Source: a virus (Duplodnaviria; Heunggongvirae; Uroviricota; Caudoviricetes). Taken from it: 64,000 bases of DNA. Numbering within the stretch: position 1 is the first letter of the stretch; every line of letters begins with the position of its first letter. Below, piece after piece: positions 36,497-48,400 of this stretch. The DNA lies in the IMG/VR virus record IMGVR_UViG_3300035521_000566, one strand, 5' to 3'. The translations under genes were made by a program, and so were the position numbers. Under the pieces are notes generated by a model. The model worked only from the letters and a program-made list of their open reading frames with translations. It had not been told where the DNA came from and ran no database searches.

Positions 36497-38323
36497 ATGG
36501 GATTGAATAATTTTACAAATCCTAACAGCACCAACAACGGAGGAAACAACAAGAATCCTTTAAACGGTGTAAGCAGTCATGCAGGTAACGGTGCTAATAA
36601 TAATGCATCGGATTATGACGCAATGGACTTTCTGATTGATTACAACAAAAAGTTTCAGACTGCAGGTAAGACAATGTTCAGAGATGAAATTGTAGAACAA
36701 ACTTTAGCTGTCCTAATTGGAAAAAATAAGCCGAATGCTTTGCTTATCGGTTCAGCTGGAGTTGGTAAGACCAAAATTGTTGAAGACCTTGCTTTTCGTT
36801 TAGCAACAAACGATGGTATTGTGCCTGACACATTAAAAGGCTTCACAATTTATGAGCTTCCATTGTCTAACATCGTATCAGGTAGTTCCTTTGTTGGTCA
36901 GTTAGAAGAAAAGCTAAAATCAGTAATTGATTTTGCAGAGGATAAGAAGAACAAAGCTATTTTGTTCATTGATGAAATCCATATGATTGTATCTGACAAT
37001 CAGATTTACAGCAAGATGGCAGAAATCTTAAAGCCTGCTCTTGCCAGAGGAGAGATGCGTGTAATCGGAGCCACTACTTTGCAGGAAAGTCAGGACTTAA
37101 TCGACAATCCAGCTTTCAACCGAAGATTTTCAAGATTGATTGTGGATGAGCTGTCTCGTGAGCAGACTGTTGAAATTCTGAAAAGTATGAAAGGCTCATT
37201 CTTTACACATTACGGCAATAAGATTACAATTGATGATGCAATGCTTGAGACTGTTGCTGTCCTAGCAGATGAGTTTCACGCAGCAGGCAACCACAGACCT
37301 GATACAGCCATCACATTGCTAGACCGTACTATCGGTGACGCTATTGTTGCTCGTAAAGTAATGGAAGAATCTGCAAAGAATGACCCTGCTTTACTCGCAG
37401 CCATTCAGTCAGTTACACTAATTCCGATTACCGAAAAGCAGTTAAGAACTACTGCTGTTAAGCTGGCTACAGGTAACAACAAAAAGGCAGACCTTGATGT
37501 TGACGCTTTAAAAGCAGACCTTAGCGTAATTAAGGGACAGGACGAGATTATCGACACTCTGGTAGAGCGTATCAGACGTAACGATATGAACTTATTCCCT
37601 AAAGTTAAGCCGCTTACAATACTATTTGCAGGTACTTCAGGTGTTGGCAAGACAGAGGTCACAAAGATAATTGCAAAAGAAATCACAGGTGTTAAGCCTA
37701 TTACCCTTAATATGACAGAGTTCCACTCTCCTGCTTCTATCAATCGAATTATCGGTGCTCCAGCTGGCTATGTAGGTAGTGACAGCAAGGCTGAACTTCC
37801 ATTTGATTGTCTGGAGTCCAATCCTTATCAGGTAATTCTGCTTGATGAGTTTGAGAAGTGTGATAAGTCAGTGCAGAGACTATTTATGTCCGCATTTGAC
37901 GAGGGCTATATTAAGACCAACAAGGGCAAGATTGTAGACTTCTCAAAGGCAATTATTATTGCAACTACTAATGCAGCTCATAAAGACCACAAGAACTCAC
38001 TTGGCTTTACTCAGGGCGAAACCAAATCGTCCAATAAATCCGAAATTAAAGATTTGAGCCAGTGGTTTGATACGGAGCTGTTAAACAGGTTCGACACCAT
38101 CGTAACCTTTAACGAGTTGTCAAAAGACATTTATCGTGAAATCATAGCTGACACATATCATCGTGAAGCTGAACGTATTCTCTCAGAGAATAAGAAAATA
38201 AAGCTTGCACCTGATATGCCAGACGCTGACCTCGATAAAATCGTTGAAGATACTTACATCCCATCCTTTGGTGCAAGACCTGCTGGTAAGGCTGTTCGGC
38301 AGTATATTGAAGACCATGCATAA
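36497..38323 (+). CDS. ClpA/B/C-like Hsp100 ATPase with two AAA modules, lacking N- and M-domains
   Basis: GSAGVGKT, FIDEIH, GATT; GTSGVGKT, IIGAPAGYVG, LLDEFEK; SLGF loop; FGARP. Confidence 0.92.
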   Translation: MGLNNFTNPNSTNNGGNNKNPLNGVSSHAGNGANNNASDYDAMDFLIDYNKKFQTAGKTMFRDEIVEQTLAVLIGKNKPNALLIGSAGVGKTKIVEDLAFRLATNDGIVPDTLKGFTIYELPLSNIVSGSSFVGQLEEKLKSVIDFAEDKKNKAILFIDEIHMIVSDNQIYSKMAEILKPALARGEMRVIGATTLQESQDLIDNPAFNRRFSRLIVDELSREQTVEILKSMKGSFFTHYGNKITIDDAMLETVAVLADEFHAAGNHRPDTAITLLDRTIGDAIVARKVMEESAKNDPALLAAIQSVTLIPITEKQLRTTAVKLATGNNKKADLDVDALKADLSVIKGQDEIIDTLVERIRRNDMNLFPKVKPLTILFAGTSGVGKTEVTKIIAKEITGVKPITLNMTEFHSPASINRIIGAPAGYVGSDSKAELPFDCLESNPYQVILLDEFEKCDKSVQRLFMSAFDEGYIKTNKGKIVDFSKAIIIATTNAAHKDHKNSLGFTQGETKSSNKSEIKDLSQWFDTELLNRFDTIVTFNELSKDIYREIIADTYHREAERILSENKKIKLAPDMPDADLDKIVEDTYIPSFGARPAGKAVRQYIEDHA

Positions 38324-38431
38324 ATATGTTATAGGTGTGCATTGAAAAAAAATGCACGCCTATAGCCTGATACAAATAAATAAATATGCAGACAGTATAT
38401 GCTGTCTACAAATACAAATAAGGAGATAAAT

Positions 38432-41266
38432 ATGCCAGTAATTTTAGACGACGTTCAAAAGAATATTGCGGCTACCACTAAGAAAAATGCTGTCAAATCA
38501 TATAAGGCTAAGTTCTTTAGCGATGTATTGACAGGTTCAGGAAAGAAAACTGGACTCCTAAGTGAAGCTGCAAATCCATCAGCATTGGCTGCGACCAAAA
38601 ACGGCACTGTTACTTCAGCCAACATTCAGACATTAAAGAAAAGAACCGTGTCTGGAAATGTTACTACTAACTATATACCTCTTAATCCGTTGGATGCAGA
38701 CGCCTGGGAACAGATGAAGATTCATAAAAGACCAGAGCTTGCAGATATGGTATGCATCGCAAAGCATCCGACTACGAATGAAAGCGTATATCTTGATATG
38801 CCAGTTCATTCTATTATTGCTCAGGAGACTGAGACTAAAACAGGCAGCAAGATTCGTAAAATTAACCCTTGCTATCAGTTATTCCTGTACACAATTCGTG
38901 ACATAAACGATGTAAATCACGAAATGGTAAGAACAGCTGTAAGCAAAGCAAACGGCAATTCATATTTCTTTGATTTCACTGTAAGTCCTCTTCGTTTTCT
39001 TCAGTCAATTGCAAATGATTTGACAAATGCAGGTTACAGCGTTGACGCACAGACAATGAACGACTACATCACCAACTATGTTTTGTACAATGCTGTTGCA
39101 AAGCGTAGTGAGGAATGGCAGACAAAGATTGATACCATTATTGACGAGTATCTTGACAACATGGTGAAGTCAACAGTTTATGGTGCAAATAGTAAAATAA
39201 AAAATACCATTAAGAGACTTGAGACATACAATGTTCCACTTGATTTGTACCGTAACATCTATAGCAGCTTACAGAAGCACTTTAAGCCAGATGATGTTGC
39301 CTCTTTATGTAAGCATAACCTGAATCTGTTGTTATCGGATACATTAAACAGTCTGAATAACAATAAGCCTCAGTTGCAGCACATTCCAACTCCAAACCCA
39401 TCTGTTGCACTTCCAAGCAATGTTGCTAAGTGGTCCAGTGAGCAGAAAATTGCTGTAACAACCCCAGAGCCGTTAGTATTGGTCCAGGCAGGTGCTGGTA
39501 CTGGAAAGAGTACAGTAATTTTAGGCAGACTGAGTTACATGCAGGCTTGCGGTGTTGACCCTGACGATATTACTATCTTAAGCTTCACCAACGCTGCCGC
39601 TGACCATATCACTGAACTGGATGCTAACGTACACAGTATGACCATTGCTAAAATGGTTCATAGCATTTACTCAGAGAATTATCCTACGCACGAGCTTTCA
39701 TCAGAAAAGACACTGATGAACTGTATTGATATTTACTTTGCAAATAACAACACAGCTTCTCGGTTCAAGTACCTGTTGGGCGATGTAGAGCGTAATGAGG
39801 CAAATGCGTATACCGATTTGAATAACTTCGTTGAAGATAACTTCGATGAGGTCATAAACATTTTGAATGTTACACGCCAGACAACTCTTACACTTGAGAT
39901 TATCATCTGTTATCAGAAGATTGATATACTTACAGAACCAGCTGAAATCAAGAGTAAGTATCTTATCGTTGATGAAGTACAGGATAACTCTATCTTTGAG
40001 TTCATCTATACTCTGAAATATGTCGATAAGCATAACGAGAGTCTTTTCATCGTAGGTGACTGCTCTCAGACTCTTTACGAGTTCCGTGGTTCTAATCCTA
40101 GAGGATTGAATGTACTTGAGAGCTCAGGCGTATTCGCTACTTATCAGCTTCAGACCAACTATCGTTCCAATCAGGAGATTTTGGACTTTGCTAATAAGCA
40201 CTTGCTTAACATCGAAGCCAATCAGCAGGCTAATCTGCAGTTAAAGGCTAACTCACTTGCAAAGGTAACCGAAAAGACATTCAGACAGAAAGTAAATCTG
40301 TCATATCACTGTCTCCAGAAGGTCGGTGATTTCAGTATCAACATTGGTCCTAACTTTGCTGTTTACTGTAAGAATTATATTGATAGCTGCCTTGCCAGAG
40401 GTGAACAGATTGCAGTTCTTGCGTACAAGCGTAAGGACATTTATTGTATCGAAGAAGCTATCAAGAAGTTATATCCTACTGCCACTATCAACAATCTGAT
40501 TCCAAAGCGTCAGTATGACAGTGCTATCTTTTCAGCGTTCATTAAAAACTACTGGAATGAGGTACAGTTCATTCCGACAAAATCAATTGAGATTGTAATT
40601 TGTCAGGCTATTATCGGAAAGGTTGATTTCTTAATGAGAGGCGACCATAACAAGAACTTAGCAATAATTCAGAAGTCAGTTGGCGGTTGGCGTACTCAGA
40701 ATGCAGGTATTATTCAGTCGTGGCAGACACAGTATACTCACGGCTTGATGAACCAGGACGAGTTTTTCGAGAATTTAAAGCAGAGTCTGCTTGATTATGA
40801 GATTCGTACGAACTCTATCAGACAGTCATTGCTTGCTGCTCAGAATGAAGAAGCCAAGAAGAATGCGGACCCTAATGCTAACTTTGTGCTCAGTACAATT
40901 CATTCTGCAAAAGGTCTTGAGTTTGATAACTGTATTGTTATTCATCGTAATGATAATAACATGGATGAAGACCAGAAGCGTATGTACTATGTGGCGTTCA
41001 CCAGAGCAAAGAACACAGAGCTTATCCTGTCATATGATACTGTTAAAAGCCCACAGATTGAGACGAACTACAAGCTTATCTGTCAGCAGTTACACGAACA
41101 GGATATAACACTTGCAAAGACAATGGGAAAGACACATAACATCATTGCAAACAATGTCAGCACAGAAGTGATTGACGATGATTTCTACAATGCCGATGGC
41201 ACATACGCTACTATTGTAGCTAATACAAATGCTACACCTTTAGCACCGACAGGCACTGAAGACTAA
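38432..41266 (+). CDS. UvrD/PcrA-like SF1 helicase with long N-terminal extension
   Basis: QAGAGTGKS, LSFTNAAA, VDEVQD, VGDCSQTLYEFRG, NYRS, STIHSAKGLEF, YVAFTRAK. Confidence 0.93.
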   Translation: MPVILDDVQKNIAATTKKNAVKSYKAKFFSDVLTGSGKKTGLLSEAANPSALAATKNGTVTSANIQTLKKRTVSGNVTTNYIPLNPLDADAWEQMKIHKRPELADMVCIAKHPTTNESVYLDMPVHSIIAQETETKTGSKIRKINPCYQLFLYTIRDINDVNHEMVRTAVSKANGNSYFFDFTVSPLRFLQSIANDLTNAGYSVDAQTMNDYITNYVLYNAVAKRSEEWQTKIDTIIDEYLDNMVKSTVYGANSKIKNTIKRLETYNVPLDLYRNIYSSLQKHFKPDDVASLCKHNLNLLLSDTLNSLNNNKPQLQHIPTPNPSVALPSNVAKWSSEQKIAVTTPEPLVLVQAGAGTGKSTVILGRLSYMQACGVDPDDITILSFTNAAADHITELDANVHSMTIAKMVHSIYSENYPTHELSSEKTLMNCIDIYFANNNTASRFKYLLGDVERNEANAYTDLNNFVEDNFDEVINILNVTRQTTLTLEIIICYQKIDILTEPAEIKSKYLIVDEVQDNSIFEFIYTLKYVDKHNESLFIVGDCSQTLYEFRGSNPRGLNVLESSGVFATYQLQTNYRSNQEILDFANKHLLNIEANQQANLQLKANSLAKVTEKTFRQKVNLSYHCLQKVGDFSINIGPNFAVYCKNYIDSCLARGEQIAVLAYKRKDIYCIEEAIKKLYPTATINNLIPKRQYDSAIFSAFIKNYWNEVQFIPTKSIEIVICQAIIGKVDFLMRGDHNKNLAIIQKSVGGWRTQNAGIIQSWQTQYTHGLMNQDEFFENLKQSLLDYEIRTNSIRQSLLAAQNEEAKKNADPNANFVLSTIHSAKGLEFDNCIVIHRNDNNMDEDQKRMYYVAFTRAKNTELILSYDTVKSPQIETNYKLICQQLHEQDITLAKTMGKTHNIIANNVSTEVIDDDFYNADGTYATIVANTNATPLAPTGTED

Positions 41267-41276
41267 TCAATTATTC

Positions 41277-41320
41277 ACATAGCTATCGTAAGGTCTTTAC
41301 CTTACGGTAATTATGTGTGA
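41277..41320 (+). terminator. Hairpin after the helicase gene
   Basis: CACATAG..ATCGTAAGG-tcttta-CCTTACGGT..TTATGTG. Confidence 0.5.
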
Positions 41321-41350
41321 CTACTAAAACAATATAATGAAAGGAATTAT

Positions 41351-41959
41351 ATGAATAATACGAATAATAAGGTTGCCTATAACAAAGGCGACATATACCA
41401 TGTTCGTAGCGGTGCCATCAATTCAGTAGGCGATGAAATCTGGTCTGACAGACCTGCTGTTATCATATCCAACGATACAAGCAACAAATATTCAGGTGTT
41501 GTAACTATTGTATACCTGACTACAAGTAAAAAGAAAAGAATGAGACCAACTCATGTGCCTATTCTATCAGGAACAACTCAGGCACTTGCTATGTGTGAAC
41601 AGATATTTTCTGTTGACAAAACAAGACTTGACGATTACATCGGCAAAATTACAGACGAAGAAATTGCAAACATTGATTCTGCACTGATGTTCCAACTGGA
41701 AATCAATCCTGCTGCTCGTCCAACTTCTATTTTTAAGAAATGGGAGAATTATATCAATCGGAATAATATGAACATTGATAAATACAATGTTCCTGATTTC
41801 GACCAACCTTTAGACGCAGAAATTGCTCTGCCGTATAATACACTTGTTCATCCAGATGATTATACGAAAATACTGGAAGGTGAGATTGAAACATTAAAAG
41901 ACGAGGTAGAAAAATATAAACAGCTGTATGATACCTGCAAAGGATATTTAGTAAGCTAG
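41351..41959 (+). CDS. PemK/MazF-family endoribonuclease domain with C-terminal coiled coil; no adjacent antitoxin
   Basis: GDIY, RPAVIISND, VYLTT, AMCEQIFSVDKTRL. Confidence 0.88.
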   Translation: MNNTNNKVAYNKGDIYHVRSGAINSVGDEIWSDRPAVIISNDTSNKYSGVVTIVYLTTSKKKRMRPTHVPILSGTTQALAMCEQIFSVDKTRLDDYIGKITDEEIANIDSALMFQLEINPAARPTSIFKKWENYINRNNMNIDKYNVPDFDQPLDAEIALPYNTLVHPDDYTKILEGEIETLKDEVEKYKQLYDTCKGYLVS

Positions 41960-41963
41960 ACAA

Positions 41964-41998
41964 GATGCCTATGACAATTGTCGTAGGCATCATTTTTA
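41964..41998 (+). terminator. Terminator-like hairpin directly upstream of the RT RBS
   Basis: GATGCCTATGAC-aatt-GTCGTAGGCATC-ATTTTT. Confidence 0.7.
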
Positions 41999-42016
41999 TA
42001 GAAAGGCAAACGATAT

Positions 42017-43276
42017 ATGACAGGCTACTTAGACGAAGTATTCTTTGAACCAAGTCGCTGGCAAACGGCTATTGACATTGCTGTTGACAAAGGAATTGAT
42101 AAACGATTACTTCAAAAATTATGTTGTCCAAACGAACGAATCAAACTCTATTATAGCCTGCGTGAACATAACTATACGATTGCTCCGCCTCACGAAGCCT
42201 TAATTCCTAAGGATGACGGCACATTTCGTACAGTCTATGTAAATGAAGGTATAGACAGGGTTATTCTTTCTATTGTGAATGATATGCTGTTTGAGCTATG
42301 TCCCGAACTGATACACAAATCATGCAAATCCTATCAAAAAGGTATAGGATGTGGCAAAGTTGTGCAGGAAATCAGTCAGACAATAAATAAGCTCAATGGT
42401 CCAAAAATAGGTGTGAAAGTTGATTTATCCAAATATTTTGATTCTGTTGAACTGCCATATATTGACGAGGTGTTCGACTATATTGATGAGAAATACGGAA
42501 AGTCAGACATCATGGATGCAGTAAGGACTTATTATCACACCAACACAGTTTTAGACATCAACAAAAACACCATCGAAAAATACTCGTCATTAAGACAAGG
42601 CTGTGCCGTAGCAGCATTCCTGGCAGATGCCGTGCTACTGGACATCGACAGTGTTTTATCTGATATGAACGTAATTTATGTAAGATACTCTGATGATATT
42701 CTTATATTAGGCAGAGAATGGGAAAAGGCTTTTAACATAATGAAAGTCATGCTCGAAGAAAAAGGTCTTACACTGAATCCGAAAAAAGTTGAACAACTAT
42801 ATAAAGACAAGTGGTTCAAATTTTTAGGCTTTACGTTAAAGAACGACAAAATCAGTCTTTCTAAAACTCGCATTGATAACTTTCAGGAAGAAATCATAAA
42901 ACGCACTATTAAGAACCCTAACAAAGATATAAATTGCATCATTCACGATGTTCATGCATATTTGTATAAGGGCTACAACGAATTTAGCTGGGCTACCAGC
43001 GTACTTCCGATTATCAATGTGGATGAAGATATATTAAAACTAAATAGCTTTGTAATGGACGCCATTCGTGCATCTATTACAGGCAAGCACAAAATCGGTG
43101 GACTTGGATGTATAACAAACATGCCAGATTCCACCATCATGCGTGGCAAGGGTAACAACGTGAAATCGAATCGTACTACTCTCCCACATTTAAACGGTTA
43201 CTACACCATCAATTGTATGCGTAACGACTTACTCACATCTCGTGAAGTTTACAATACAATTACATCACAAATGTAA
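42017..43276 (+). CDS. Reverse transcriptase, unclassified group (UG27-like by recollection)
   Basis: IPKDDGTFRTVY, SYQKG, VDLSKYFDSV, LRQG, YSDD (42686-42697), FKFLGF; no En domain, Cas1, retron VTG/NAxxH or DGR context. Confidence 0.92.
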   Translation: MTGYLDEVFFEPSRWQTAIDIAVDKGIDKRLLQKLCCPNERIKLYYSLREHNYTIAPPHEALIPKDDGTFRTVYVNEGIDRVILSIVNDMLFELCPELIHKSCKSYQKGIGCGKVVQEISQTINKLNGPKIGVKVDLSKYFDSVELPYIDEVFDYIDEKYGKSDIMDAVRTYYHTNTVLDINKNTIEKYSSLRQGCAVAAFLADAVLLDIDSVLSDMNVIYVRYSDDILILGREWEKAFNIMKVMLEEKGLTLNPKKVEQLYKDKWFKFLGFTLKNDKISLSKTRIDNFQEEIIKRTIKNPNKDINCIIHDVHAYLYKGYNEFSWATSVLPIINVDEDILKLNSFVMDAIRASITGKHKIGGLGCITNMPDSTIMRGKGNNVKSNRTTLPHLNGYYTINCMRNDLLTSREVYNTITSQM

Positions 43277-43284
43277 TATATTAA

Positions 43285-44060
43285 ACGACACAATTTGGCA
43301 GTACAGCCTAGAATTATAAGAGTGATATGACCATATTATAGCCTCATAACAATTAGAATGTATACCATTCATTGTTATATGCCTTTCGGCTATAATATGG
43401 TCTCTTCTAGTTGAGGTAAATCCAGAAGACGGTGATGACATGTGAACGTTCGTCCTTATAAGCTTGAGATGAAGTGCATTGCAGCTGGAGATGCTGTTGG
43501 ACAGATACTCATGTAAATAAGAATTTAAGGATGATAAGGTTCCAAGGTCCCATAAAACTTGAGCGGTCGTAACTTCGAATCCTGTTAAATAGTATATAAG
43601 TCAACAGTTAAAAAAAGATATGAAGTAGACTCATCGTTTAGTTCCTTCTTAAGGAATTTGGTCAACGCCTCCTAAGGATTCTTTCTTAAGAATTCAGAAT
43701 CTGAGATTAGTATCCAGTAATGGTCACCTGCGGAATTTACGTAATCTAACGTTTAGTCCGCCAGTGAGATGGAAGCTAGAAACGGGCACAGCCGTGCTGA
43801 GCTGATTCATGATTCCTGGATTGAATTCCTGAAGAGTAGGTGATTAAATAAATAATCTCTATGCCTGATTATTGTCTGTCACGAAATCAGGAATGCCAAT
43901 AAGGTTCGTACGAAATAGACGTCTGAGCCCACTGATACAAATGGATGTAACGCTCCCAGAGTTCATTGCGTATTCAACTAGAATGTTATGAATATATATT
44001 TGATGTATAATGTATTTTCATATAATTTAACAATTATAGAGATGTGCCACATCACTTGAG
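43285..44060 (+). ncRNA. Candidate RT-associated structured ncRNA (template)
   Basis: No ORF of 60 aa or more in the track between 43277 and 44098; ~100-nt hairpin 43308-43410 with a perfect 15-bp stem; 10-bp long-range pair 43405-43414/43974-43983; 3' hairpins. Confidence 0.7.
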
Positions 44061-44098
44061 TAATTCACTTTATAAAATGACTTAAGAGGAGTCATAAT

Positions 44099-44497
44099 AT
44101 GAACACAGTAAATTTCAAAACACGCACAGCCAGAATGGGTAAACACCTAATTATTAAAGACGGTCAACCCATAAAAGGCTATGAAATTCGCAACGATACT
44201 TCTGTCGAAGAATTGGACGAATTATACAAAGCTTACAAGCACTCTGTTCCAAACGGAATACACTATTATAAACCATACTTTAAAGCCCTTGACGCTGATG
44301 AATTATCAGATGCAGACATGATTACAGGAGCTAATCGAGAACAGGCTAAATTTGATTTAGAGCTTGCTGTCTTAGAGGGCATTTTGAATGGTTCATTATT
44401 AAGTTTATTCACTGACCCAAAACAATGGTTCTGGCAATCGCAATCAGATAAAGAATTTATCATATTAAGAGAATGGATAGAACCTAAAGGAGCCTAA
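44099..44497 (+). CDS. RT partner protein A (unknown function)
   Basis: 132-aa ORF right after the ncRNA; YKHSVP, YFKAL and WFWQS...IILREWI motifs. Confidence 0.75.
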   Translation: MNTVNFKTRTARMGKHLIIKDGQPIKGYEIRNDTSVEELDELYKAYKHSVPNGIHYYKPYFKALDADELSDADMITGANREQAKFDLELAVLEGILNGSLLSLFTDPKQWFWQSQSDKEFIILREWIEPKGA

Positions 44498-44498
44498 T

Positions 44499-45167
44499 AT
44501 GGACAATATAGAACAAAAAATCTTAGACGCAGGCTACATCAACAATAATCGTCTCCATAGGCGATACGTCATGACACAAATGCTTCGCCATCTCGACAAC
44601 TTTGATGATTATTTTATAACCAGAAAGCCATATGAATATATATGGAACTCTGCACTGAACGAATTTTCAATGCAATGTGAATGCGATAATGAAGAACGTA
44701 AACTCAGATTTTTACTGTTTGGCGGCTCCGTTATATCTGAGATGTTAAAAGACTTTAAAGTTCAGATAATCAAGAGCTATATAACGCCTGCAACTTTAGA
44801 TTATCTTGACACTTTAATTTCATCGGCTAAAACGGCTAGAAATAGCTGGCAAGTGAAGCAAATTATAGAACATTTCATACGCTCATATGATATAAAACAA
44901 AACTACACAAAGCCAGATATTTGGATAACATCATTCAAAGCTATCGGTGCTTACTACACGATGGATAGTTTGATTAAACTTTATGATTGCAGAACAATAC
45001 GTCAAGGTGATGTATTCGTCACTTTGTCAACAGAAGATGCTCTCTCATGTTTAGACAAATGGAAATCAACACCTGAATTGCTATTTGACATTATGCTGGA
45101 TTTCATCAAAGCCAATCAGAAACAGATTGACGAGCTAACGCAAAAAGAAAAATTACAAGAACCATAA
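44499..45167 (+). CDS. RT partner protein B (unknown function)
   Basis: 222-aa ORF starting 1 nt after the partner A stop, RBS AAAGGAG inside A; NRLHRRYVMTQM and FKAIGAYYTM..LI motifs. Confidence 0.75.
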   Translation: MDNIEQKILDAGYINNNRLHRRYVMTQMLRHLDNFDDYFITRKPYEYIWNSALNEFSMQCECDNEERKLRFLLFGGSVISEMLKDFKVQIIKSYITPATLDYLDTLISSAKTARNSWQVKQIIEHFIRSYDIKQNYTKPDIWITSFKAIGAYYTMDSLIKLYDCRTIRQGDVFVTLSTEDALSCLDKWKSTPELLFDIMLDFIKANQKQIDELTQKEKLQEP

Positions 45168-45170
45168 TTT

Positions 45171-45209
45171 AAGGCTACGACTGTTTCTAACAGTTAGGAG
45201 CCTTTTTTT
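45171..45209 (+). terminator. Terminator closing the RT unit
   Basis: AAGGCT..ACTGTT/AACAGT..AGCCTT followed by a T tract. Confidence 0.75.
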
Positions 45210-45248
45210 ATTAAACATTACAAAGGAACAAACTGACACGATTTGATA

Positions 45249-45278
45249 TTGCAAATTCAGTGTACATTGTGATACAAT
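45249..45278 (+). promoter_or_regulatory. Promoter for the large ncRNA/tRNA
   Basis: TTGCAA, 18-bp spacer, TGaTACAAT extended -10. Confidence 0.6.
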
Positions 45279-45283
45279 AACTG

Positions 45284-45993
45284 ATGCGGGCGTAACGCTG
45301 TTACGCTAAAGCATTTTATGGAAACTTTGGTTGCATTTGCAATCGGTTTCGACATTTTATCAACTATGTATCTCGGTGCATAAGGGGTCTAATCAACCCT
45401 TCCGAGAAACTTCCGTAACTTAGGTAATAAGCGAAGGCTAAAATTGAGGGATACCTCAATCAGGGCTAATTCAGATGATTGTGAATGATTCTGAGAGATA
45501 TAACAATATCTTGCTTCGGAAGTTGTGCAACTCTATATGGTCATAGTGTAGGGTGTAAATGGTGAACGAAATAGACGCTGACTCGAAAGGTCAGAAGAAT
45601 CCTATATACTGCAAGGCTGGTAACCGTGTACGTCAATGTAGGAAATACCAAACAAGTTCATTTGCCGTGAAGCCACAGAAATGTGGTGTATAACATTTGC
45701 ACGACCTGCTTAGCTCAAGGCAAGAAGAAAATATTTTCTAATCAAATGCTTATGATTATGCATTTTTTTTAAGAAAACAATTCTGAAAGATATGGGTGAA
45801 AGCTACGGGTACCATTCCCGTGTAGGCTCTGGCGTTTTACGTTGCATAAGAAGCACGGACTTGCAAACCGTTGCTCAGACTTATGTACCTACTAGCACGA
45901 TAATGAGTAGTATAGACATTGTAAGCCGAATAAAAAGCTACATATATTGATAATAATGTTTGAACCTAATGCAAATTGCAATCATATGTTTTC
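45284..45993 (+). ncRNA. Large ornate structured ncRNA, ROOL-like
   Basis: No ORF; long terminal helix 45321-45370/45939-45993; many hairpins; segments CCTTCCGA..CCGTAAC, TATATGGTCATAGTG, AACGAAATAGACGCTGAC, CTGAAAGAT and TTGCTCAG resemble ROOL as I recall it; tRNA immediately downstream. Confidence 0.7.
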
Positions 45994-46008
45994 ATTTTTT
46001 TTTTATAA

Positions 46009-46079
46009 CGCAGGTTAGAGGAGTGGTTCCTTGCGGGGGTCATAGCCCTGAGACACCAGTTCGAATCTGGTACCTGCTA
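46009..46079 (+). tRNA. tRNA-Met (CAT), initiator type
   Basis: Cloverleaf: CGCAGGT/ACCTGCT with unpaired C1:U72, three consecutive G-C pairs in the anticodon stem, TTCGAAT T-loop; CCA not encoded. Confidence 0.92.
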
Positions 46080-46124
46080 CTCTTACGTTTTTGAACTATT
46101 TAGCAAGAAGCCTCCTAAAGTAAG

Positions 46125-46180
46125 AAAAAGGGAACCTGCGTCGCTCATCATATGAGTTACGTGGGCTCCCTTTTTTTTTT
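46125..46180. terminator. Bidirectional terminator at the convergence of the two gene arms
   Basis: AAAAAGGGA...TCCC-T10 with internal CTCAT/ATGAG stem. Confidence 0.75.
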
Positions 46181-46546
46181 AATTTAATCACGCTTACGAA
46201 GACGTCTTTCTATATACTCACTTGCCCATCTCATCTTAACCCGATAAATATAATTCAAAAATCTCATCATATGTACCACCCCTTTCTGTTACAATGCCCC
46301 TCTGACGCTCTCAGACGCCTCAGAATTGATTTTAAAGTATTTAAACGAACAAGTTTACACCTGAATAATTAAAATGCCTTAAATCGCCTTCTACGGCTCT
46401 TTTAATTTTAATAAAAAGCACCTATTAAAGAAAATGCTTTAACAGGTGCTTTCACAAACACATATACGGTACTATGGACACGCCAGTACCGTTTTGGCTA
46501 CATCGTACGCATATAATTTGTTGCATACATTTGAAGACCTTCGGTC

Positions 46547-46852
46547 TTACTCTGCTGGCTCAAATAAATCATACACAATAATTGGAGCTCTATCACCCAT
46601 ATCGTCCATTGACGGAATTGTATTCGTATTCAAATACTCAATTGCGTCTTCTTCTGACATGTTGTTGTCATTCATCAGCTGATTTACCATCAAACTGAAA
46701 TTGTATACTATTCTATCCTTCTCATCTACACCGATAATTGCATCAGCAAACTCAGGCTCACTGAAAAGAATAATAGACTCCAGCTTCTCTGGTGTATTCT
46801 CATACACCTCCACTAATACATCAACAACATCTGCATTTGTTAATTCTGCCAT
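46547..46852 (-). CDS. Acidic hypothetical protein
   Basis: Start moved to MAELTN (46852) behind GAAAGGAAG. Confidence 0.7.
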   Translation of the reverse strand: MAELTNADVVDVLVEVYENTPEKLESIILFSEPEFADAIIGVDEKDRIVYNFSLMVNQLMNDNNMSEEDAIEYLNTNTIPSMDDMGDRAPIIVYDLFEPAE

Positions 46853-46895
46853 AACCTTTACTTCCTTTCTTTTTACTAAAATTTTTTTTTTAATT

Positions 46896-47255
46896 TTAAT
46901 TAAGCACAATTGTATAATAATCATCTGGCTTTAGTTCAAAACGAATCTCGTTATCATCTGCTGTGAACAAAGCTACTGATTTCGATTGTACCACCACACC
47001 CTTACTGTACTCAGAACCATCTCTCGTATACTCAAGTGGTACAAGTCCGATGTTCTTACCAGGTGTAATATACTGATTCCCATGATTGTCCTTGCAACAA
47101 TCCGAAATTTTATCAGAAAAACAAACAGCAAATAAAGGGATTGAGCCACATTTTAAAGCGTCTGTAATTCTTGTCACTTCACCAGGCGTAAATACATGGG
47201 TTATATCACCAAAGTAAAAACCTAATATTGAGGCTAACATATTTCGTTGTATCAT
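46896..47255 (-). CDS. Hypothetical protein
   Basis: 119-aa ORF, co-linear with neighbours. Confidence 0.6.
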   Translation of the reverse strand: MIQRNMLASILGFYFGDITHVFTPGEVTRITDALKCGSIPLFAVCFSDKISDCCKDNHGNQYITPGKNIGLVPLEYTRDGSEYSKGVVVQSKSVALFTADDNEIRFELKPDDYYTIVLN

Positions 47256-47272
47256 ACTTCCTACTACCTCAC

Positions 47273-48400
47273 TTACTCCTTATGCAATTTATCAAAAGCA
47301 GCCTGCATTGTTGGATTATCATTGCAAAGCCGTTTAATATCAAGATTTGACGCTCTATCTCCTGCCAGACGCATCTGCCGCTCTGCTGCCAGAATAGAAT
47401 CTCTTGTCTTTTGCAAACTTACGATTGCCTTATCAATCGTCTCAATTGATTCATTCAAACGCTTACTTGTCTGTTCAGAATTATAGGAAAACTTTGATTT
47501 AAACTCGTCTAAAGACTGTTCAAACTGATGCACATCTAAATCCTGATTCTGCAACACTGCAAGCTGTTTCTTAGACTCTAAAGAGTTTAATGCTGCATTA
47601 CGCAACACAGTAATAATCGGTATGAAAAACTGCGGTCTTACAACATACATCTTAGGATATAGATGCGAAACATCTACAATTCCCTGATTATATAAATCAT
47701 TATCAGACTCAAGCATCGAAACCAAAACTGCATATTCACAACCCTTTTCCCTACGGTCTTTATCAAGCTCCTTGAAAAAGTCACTGTTCTTATGCTTCTT
47801 CTCTGTTGATTCCATTTCGTTTTTCATCTCAAACATAATAGAAACAAACTCAACATCATCTTCATAGTCACGATATATAAAGTCGCCCTTTGAGCCAGTC
47901 TTTGATATTGCATTGTCTTTGTCAAAATAAGCATTTCGAAAAGCTGTCGGTCTGAGCTTATCAAACTCATTCATACAATGCTGTTCCAAAGTCTCGCCTA
48001 CCATTTTGGTACTCATACGAGCTTTCAAATCTTTATAATATTCAACTTCGTTTGTTTTTGCCTGTACTTGCAGCTGTAATTCTGTACATTTTGCATCATA
48101 TTCAGCACGAAGCTCCATTGATAGCTTTTGCATATCAAGCTTATGCTCTTTCTCAACTGTTCTTGCTTCTATTCTGAGTGCGTCAAGTTCAGCAGACACT
48201 TTATGCAATTTTTCCTGTTCTTCAGAAACAGCCTTATTCATTTTTAACTTTGTCTCAGTTTCAGCTAACGCTTTTACTTCATGCAGACGCTTCTCCAGCT
48301 CTCTGTCAAACTCGTTAGTACGAACCTGTGCTAATATTCGAGCACTTTCATCTTCGGACAAATTAAAAATCTGATTACAATGAGGGCACTTAATTTCCAT
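47273..48400 (-). CDS. DUF2130-family coiled-coil protein
   Basis: MEIKCPHC, KMVGETLEQHC, KGDFIYRD, SIMFEMKNE, KDRREKGCEYAVLVSMLE. Confidence 0.85.
   Translation of the reverse strand: MEIKCPHCNQIFNLSEDESARILAQVRTNEFDRELEKRLHEVKALAETETKLKMNKAVSEEQEKLHKVSAELDALRIEARTVEKEHKLDMQKLSMELRAEYDAKCTELQLQVQAKTNEVEYYKDLKARMSTKMVGETLEQHCMNEFDKLRPTAFRNAYFDKDNAISKTGSKGDFIYRDYEDDVEFVSIMFEMKNEMESTEKKHKNSDFFKELDKDRREKGCEYAVLVSMLESDNDLYNQGIVDVSHLYPKMYVVRPQFFIPIITVLRNAALNSLESKKQLAVLQNQDLDVHQFEQSLDEFKSKFSYNSEQTSKRLNESIETIDKAIVSLQKTRDSILAAERQMRLAGDRASNLDIKRLCNDNPTMQAAFDKLHKE

Follow-up and report, generated by a model that had tools for sequence, protein, structure and literature searches.

The 64-kb window analysed here, the whole stretch of 64,000 nucleotides taken from the Caudoviricetes virus record IMGVR_UViG_3300035521_000566 of IMG/VR, carries a reverse transcriptase (RT) locus that is, as the best explanation of the whole, very probably a UG27 module whose three proteins copy the units of an RNA array into short DNA hairpins. 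The RT is a UG27 reverse transcriptase, its two partner proteins belong to the RTas346 and RTas337 families, and the module sits on a large mobile element, about 210 kb in size. UG27 systems were published in 2022 and again in 2026, so that the novelty attached to the locus in the initial annotation does not stand: it is a known kind of system, of which this is a somewhat divergent further example.

UG27 has been defined as a class 2 UG/Abi RT that goes together with protein clusters 346 and 337; it is found mostly on predicted gut phages, shows no enrichment in defence islands, and has a structured non-coding RNA (ncRNA) predicted in its intergenic region (Mestre et al., 2022, PMC9226505). 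A later preprint describes the UG27 spacer as a variable array of units that are diverse in sequence and conserved in structure, with unit lengths peaking at 149 and 167 nt and a further class of ~135 nt that has no pseudoknot (Li et al., 24 September 2026 preprint, 10.64898/2026.09.22.753630). In that work five UG27 systems in E. coli gave single-stranded DNAs of 50-100 nt that map to the central hairpin in every unit. The complementary DNA (cDNA) starts at the AUC of AUCN7UANAG and ends after UUYA across the hairpin, the products are abolished by YSAA or by loss of either accessory gene, and some clades have units that escape the models of the preprint (10.64898/2026.09.22.753630).

The reverse transcriptase and its two partner proteins

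The module reads in one direction on the + strand, as the RT (419 aa, 42017-43276), a non-coding spacer of 822 nt that we take as the UG27 ncRNA array (43277-44098), a small accessory protein of 132 aa (ORF A, here sORF; cluster 346, RTas346; 44099-44497), a large accessory protein in a short form of 222 aa (ORF B, here bORF; cluster 337, RTas337; 44499-45167) and an intrinsic terminator at the operon end (45171-45209). The initial annotation had described an intact RT, a structured spacer poor in open reading frames (ORFs), two coupled ORFs and a terminator, all of them sharing one strand, and both the coordinates and the folding z-score given below agree with that description. Ranked against the RT profiles of PADLOC, the protein matched RT_UG27 with 597.3 bits (E 3.8e-180, positions 6-419 of 420), and the runner-up classes were UG26 (129.6 bits) and UG17 (100.2 bits), a lead for UG27 of more than 450 bits. 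The RT motifs DLSKYFD, LRQG, YSDD and FLGF lie at residues 136, 192, 224-227 and 269, respectively; across 38 homologues Y224, D226 and D227 of the catalytic site are invariant and S225 is kept in at least 90%. RVT_1 was the sole Pfam family found in the RT, and no Pfam family was matched by sORF or bORF.

The small protein matched the PADLOC profile RTas346 (E 7.4e-33) and the large one RTas337 (E 4.1e-23, in two stretches); with the RT_UG27 match, these profiles confirm the resemblance to UG27 that the initial annotation had proposed. In sORF the motifs YKHSVP, YFKAL and WFWQS..DKDF are kept in 24 aligned homologues. The TAA stop of sORF occupies 44495-44497 and the ATG of bORF starts at 44499, with an AAAGGAG box 6 nt upstream of this ATG and inside sORF, which makes translational coupling of the two genes plausible. 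The terminator stem that follows, AAGGCT..ACTGTT..AACAGT..AGCCTT and then T7, was read directly from the sequence, a simple terminator scan having missed it because of its interior loops.

AlphaFold2 (AF2) models of the two accessory proteins were of high quality by the predicted local distance difference test (pLDDT 91.1 for sORF and 91.3 for bORF), and they predict a small alpha/beta fold for sORF and a mostly helical fold for bORF. Foldseek searches with both models against the PDB returned nothing at E<=0.001, a wide VIA-align search gave best Z values of 3.0 for sORF and of 7.0 for bORF, the latter on generic helical bundles, and look-alikes of bORF in the ESM Atlas were uninformative. 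This agrees with the literature, in which the accessory proteins have no known domain. A complex prediction for RT, sORF and bORF, in which bORF was taken as the partner, scored 0.61, as compared with 0.50 when the RT was replaced, and is not used as evidence for or against a complex.

The association of the three genes extends well beyond the window. A search with the RT returned 4390 homologues at E<=1e-40, and of the 33 retrieved loci in which the sequence continues for 1.9 kb or more behind the RT, 27 have sORF and 25 have both partners on the same strand. The six loci that lack sORF belong to a clade in which the partners are further than 3 kb downstream and so outside the retrieved flank. 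A spacer was found in every close relative, at the same place and with a length of 480-1510 nt. In seven further loci of the same clade as the window (62-68% RT identity), the order RT-spacer-sORF-bORF is kept amid quite different neighbourhoods. In seven loci the RT and sORF are fused into a single ORF of ~540-555 aa (L006, 3980-5647, and L032-L037; loci are given here by L numbers); this fusion clade stands at ~48% identity, several of its records come from rumen-type JGI metagenomes, and the fusion supports a joint action of RT and sORF.

Organisation of the spacer RNA

The spacer has stop codons in all six frames. Its longest internal stop-to-stop frame on the + strand is 50 aa, and on the - strand there is a 58-aa ATG ORF (43265-43441) inside a stop-to-stop frame of 111 aa. 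Folding of the + strand gave -218.5 kcal/mol, relative to -186.4 +/- 7.4 kcal/mol for shuffled sequences (z -4.37; 0/20 shuffles as good); for the - strand, z was -3.39. An Rfam search of 40000-48000 at E<=1 found no family in the spacer and only the ROOL RNA and a tRNA downstream of the module.

The spacer opens with a leader (43297-43330) that consists of a small hairpin, GGC-AGUACA-GCC (43297-43308), followed by UUAUAAG..GAUAUGA; in eight loci the leader hairpin and a (U)AUGAGUA/UAUAAG motif stand directly after the RT stop (alignment A3). The first long hairpin, H1 (74 nt, 43329-43402), has a basal stem made of a 15-bp inverted repeat that is 100% complementary, and in the same eight loci 12 of the 15 stem pairs stay paired through changes on both sides. 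Model R3, which represents the leader and H1, gave one match per locus, always right behind the RT stop; since R3 is absent from array interiors, the middle units are not copies of H1. H1 is likely the first template hairpin or an array leader.

At the other end of the spacer, the canonical UG27 unit adjoining sORF (43931-44068) can be recognised by its parts. In relatives such a unit consists of a basal stem AUAUAC...GUAUAU, UUCA, a long central hairpin, AUAUGAAAC-N4-UAUAG, a small hairpin and UUGAGUA. In the window UUCA (43973-43976) is followed by the central hairpin (43981-44028), AUU-N7-UAUAG (AUUUAACAAUUAUAG, 44025-44039), a small hairpin (44041-44053) and UUGAGUAAU (44056-44064), and these motifs fit the published UUYA and AUCN7UANAG with one mismatch (U for C). 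An nhmmer profile of the 3' block, made from 12 units, had one match in the 64-kb window, namely at 44019-44066 (E 1.3e-7). We also built a covariance model, R1, from the clear units of relatives with ~55% identity (alignment A5) and a broader one, R2, from the hits of R1 (alignment A7). Beside related RTs (L002, L004, L005, L008, L023, L024, L028, L029 and L040) R1 and R2 resolve arrays in which 3-5 units follow one another in tandem at a period of 145-195 nt, and R2 matched the last unit of the window with 21 bits (E 0.013 in 6 kb). The sequence ATCN7TANAG with one mismatch allowed occurs 228 times in the window, relative to 251 expected from shuffles, so that the motif has no diagnostic value by itself.

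The middle of the spacer (~43435-43930) does not align with relatives and is detected by neither R1 nor R2, but it holds several stable hairpins. The putative boundary motif GA[GT]ATG[AG] (one copy at 43466-43472) starts at 43324, 43466, 43617 and 43766, with a spacing of 142, 151 and 149 nt; these four copies compare with 0.46 expected from the density in the window, and four were reached in 1 of 5000 shuffles, for a motif that was picked post hoc, after inspection of the sequence. A related purine-rich motif, GAUGRAR, is present in the spacer middles of 7 of the 8 clade members, at intervals that are often ~150-160 or 300-320 nt. Given the conserved ends, the hairpins of the middle, the periodic GAKATGR and the related motif in the middles of the clade, the most likely reading of the spacer is an array, with about five units, rather than one RNA of ~800 nt. 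The first and the last unit are secure, and the three between them are putative. The initial annotation had proposed a retron-like ribonucleoprotein in which the RT copies RNA of the spacer and the partners serve as cofactors; the copying and the need for partners have since been shown for five homologues in the preprint, and it is the picture of one ncRNA that gives way to that of an array.

Among the relatives, one indel likewise points to units. Near-identical copies of the locus (L010 and L011) differ from the window within ~2.8 kb solely in the length of an A-tract (43603-43609) between two putative units, which is A7 in the window, three nucleotides longer in L010 and five longer in L011. 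The closest relatives beyond these, L014-L016, have 66% RT identity and the whole neighbourhood in common with the window. L015 and L014 encode an identical RT protein and differ by a clean insertion of 285 nt in L015 (6555-6839) and one other mismatch; the insertion is flanked by the direct repeat AGAAAGAA and holds a (GATTAGTAA)n microsatellite. This indel is a gain or loss of units as described in the 2026 preprint. Between the array and sORF of L014 (6872-7054), and likewise in L015 and L016, a 60-aa ORF is called that has no counterpart in the window. In five loci of the clade an extra canonical unit stands right after bORF (R2, 25-87 bits), at 8200-8369 in L017, 9002-9167 in L018, 9351-9511 in L021, 7573-7739 in L047 and 7258-7418 in L050; L014 and L015 have no canonical unit after bORF.

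Alternative readings and the neighbouring genes

Five observations weigh against this reading of the locus as a UG27 system. First, R1 and R2 see the last unit only, and weakly at that (21 bits), leaving the ~600 nt that separate it from H1 unmatched. Second, the AUC published for the start of the cDNA reads AUU in the last unit of the window. Third, R2 found no unit after bORF in the window, where the terminator and then ROOL stand instead. Fourth, bORF is of the minimal 222-aa form, without the N-terminal CxxC extension and the insert of ~60 aa found in relatives; its core motifs, D.IE...GY..N..L.RR..M.QM.R and K..W...K..G.YYT...K...C, are kept, and a profile search of the bORF family, with 737 representatives at E<=1e-3, includes several proteins of 214-237 aa. 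Fifth, a terminator-like hairpin upstream of the RT (12 bp, 41964-41991; with its T-run, 41964-41999) comes to within 18 nt of the start codon of the RT, too close for a promoter of the RT to fit in between.

One alternative is that only the ends of the spacer function, namely the leader with H1 and the last unit, and that the ~530 nt between them are a fast-drifting linker or a regulatory 5' untranslated region. Consistent with this, R2 and the sequence profile match the last unit alone, the leader/H1 element recognised by R3 is unique in each locus, and the spacers of the window and L015 can be aligned only over their first ~150 nt and last ~170 nt. Conversely, the middle has stable hairpins together with GAKATGR at a unit-like spacing, GAUGRAR recurs in the middles of nearly all clade members, and the 285-nt indel falls within the middle. 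We regard a function of the ends only as unlikely, and prefer the array.

The array of this clade may also have a layout of its own. In the window, L015, L017, L018, L021, L047, L050 and L051, it could be that a fixed and previously undescribed arrangement comprises a unique, covarying leader/H1, a middle with units of a third structural type, which canonical models would miss, and a single canonical unit abutting sORF, in which case leader/H1 could be a signal for assembly, processing or priming instead of a template. This proposal is tentative, with a modest chance of being right.

Turning to the genes around the module, the window covers that part of the large mobile element which is devoted to DNA metabolism, with genes for an integrase, a sigma-like factor, a clamp loader, NrdD, thymidylate synthase, helicases and guanylate kinase. 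Contigs that carry the RT protein of the window itself reach 210 kb, and the IMG/VR contigs with relatives of the RT measure 115-177 kb; when the locus was compared with phage records by blastn, there was no match. The order common to L014-L016 is ClpB-like ATPase, UvrD-like helicase, PemK/MazF, RT, spacer, sORF, 222-aa bORF, ROOL, tRNA and DUF2130.

Directly upstream of the RT and on the same strand lies the gene for a PemK/MazF-like protein of 202 aa (41351-41999) with no visible antitoxin, and a functional link between this orphan MazF and the RT had been suggested at the outset. Retron and DRT systems often pair the RT with a toxic effector. By this alternative, the locus would resemble a retron and work as a toxin-antitoxin or abortive-infection unit, with MazF as the effector, restrained by a complex of RT and cDNA, and the position, strand and missing antitoxin of MazF are what speak for it. 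The comparison of loci does not bear out the link: it is the syntenic element family L010-L016 alone that has MazF next to the RT; seven other loci of the clade lack it, and the genes upstream in L017-L021, L047, L050 and L051 are UDG and others. The arrangement of MazF, hairpin and RT is likewise kept only in L010-L016, and in it the terminator-like hairpin separates MazF from the RT. Moreover, the RT has neither the NAxxH nor the VTG motif of retrons, and UG27 shows no defence-island enrichment (Mestre et al., 2022, PMC9226505). A role for MazF as the effector is therefore highly improbable.

Further upstream, the stretch 36497-41266 encodes a ClpB-like double AAA+ ATPase (PADLOC PDC-M37B, DolB-like) and a 955-aa UvrD-like helicase that matches the GajB and RTasHel profiles with E about 1e-30. 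Both are kept with the RT only in L010-L016, and the stretch may serve the element as a cluster for defence or counter-defence.

On the downstream side, a full-length ROOL RNA (RF03087, 249.9 bits, 45348-45959) and then a tRNA-Met(CAT) (46009-46080) follow the module. ROOL begins 140 nt after the terminator of the module, with a promoter-like TTGCAA-18-TACAAT at 45249-45278, and the position beside a tRNA is the usual context of ROOL (Weinberg et al., 2017, PMC5737381). ROOL was considered as a component of the system and rejected, as ROOL with the tRNA follows the UG27 system in the window and L014/L015 only, and ROOL was absent from L001-L009, L017, L018, L019 and L021. Because MazF on the one side and ROOL with tRNA-Met on the other are confined to one element family, we consider them to be neighbours of the module, not components.

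That the RT belongs to a group II intron, a diversity-generating retroelement (DGR) or a CRISPR system with overlooked partners can practically be dismissed: weak RT-domain matches to those classes do exist, and against them stand the lead of the UG27 profile over all others, a TIGR04416 score of 99.9 bits that lies below the 300-bit cutoff for a group II intron RT, the absence of intron RNA from the gap and from 40000-48000 at E<=1, the finding that nothing in the spacer recurs elsewhere in the 64-kb window, hence the absence of a DGR-type pair of template and variable repeats (TR/VR), and the lack of a Pfam match in sORF and bORF that would mark an Avd protein. The exclusion of introns and DGRs in the initial annotation was accordingly sound.

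Comparison with known systems and proposed mechanism

The locus shares with other UG27 systems the RT profile, both accessory families, the order RT-spacer-sORF-bORF and the location on a mobile element, as well as a structured spacer, a unit with UUYA and AUN-N7-UANAG, and, in relatives, a modular variation of array length. It differs from other UG27 clades in that most of its spacer escapes models built from those clades, and from its UG27 relatives in its minimal bORF and in having no unit after bORF; nor is its element obviously a tailed prophage. As in retrons, an adjacent ncRNA would supply the hairpin that the RT copies into a short single-stranded DNA, with accessory proteins encoded alongside. 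Unlike retrons, there would be many template units instead of one msd, the UG27 homologues need two accessory proteins for synthesis itself, and no 2'-5' branched multicopy single-stranded DNA (msDNA) has been reported. The locus had been held not to be a retron, and this is upheld: in addition to the missing NAxxH and VTG motifs, the best retron profile scored a low 41.5 bits, and no retron RNA family was found. Like DRT2 and DRT9 (UG2 and UG28), UG27 belongs to the class 2 UG/Abi RTs and has its ncRNA template encoded beside the RT. Whereas DRT2 and DRT9 produce long cDNA, either concatemeric or homopolymeric, and have their role in host defence, the UG27 homologues make short discrete hairpins and have no enrichment in defence islands; the RT of the window scored low against both DRT profiles (Drt9, 83 bits; Drt2, 43.5 bits).

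For cDNA synthesis, the cDNA boundaries and the need for all three proteins, we draw on the literature on the homologues; the three protein families, the gene order, the covarying RNA structure, one unit with the expected motifs and the gain or loss of an array segment in a relative come from the loci compared here. By this mechanism, the operon would yield RT, array transcript, sORF and bORF, and the three proteins would act jointly on the array RNA. In each unit the RT would start from the AUC-like triplet that the central hairpin has on its 3' side, copy the hairpin and halt just past the UUYA on the 5' side, so that a short single-stranded DNA hairpin would be released. For the unit at 43931-44068 the predicted cDNA would be about 52-56 nt long and complementary to ~43973-44027, and for H1 it would be about 75-80 nt. 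The copy in the window is presumably active. We favour the view that the cDNA hairpins would serve the element and not the host, as decoys that bind proteins or nucleic acids in defence or counter-defence.

Few RT systems of prokaryotes share the position of UG27, in which the product, short cDNA hairpins made from an RNA array, is known ahead of its biological role. On that role the window locus contributes nothing decisive. It does document a clade whose putative middle units escape models from other clades, and it adds a compact divergent variant together with a hint of a clade-wide, fixed layout of leader, middle and terminal unit. With its 222-aa bORF, about five putative units and no unit after bORF, this compact natural variant could, when combined with the published models and an assay, help to define the minimal protein and RNA requirements of UG27.

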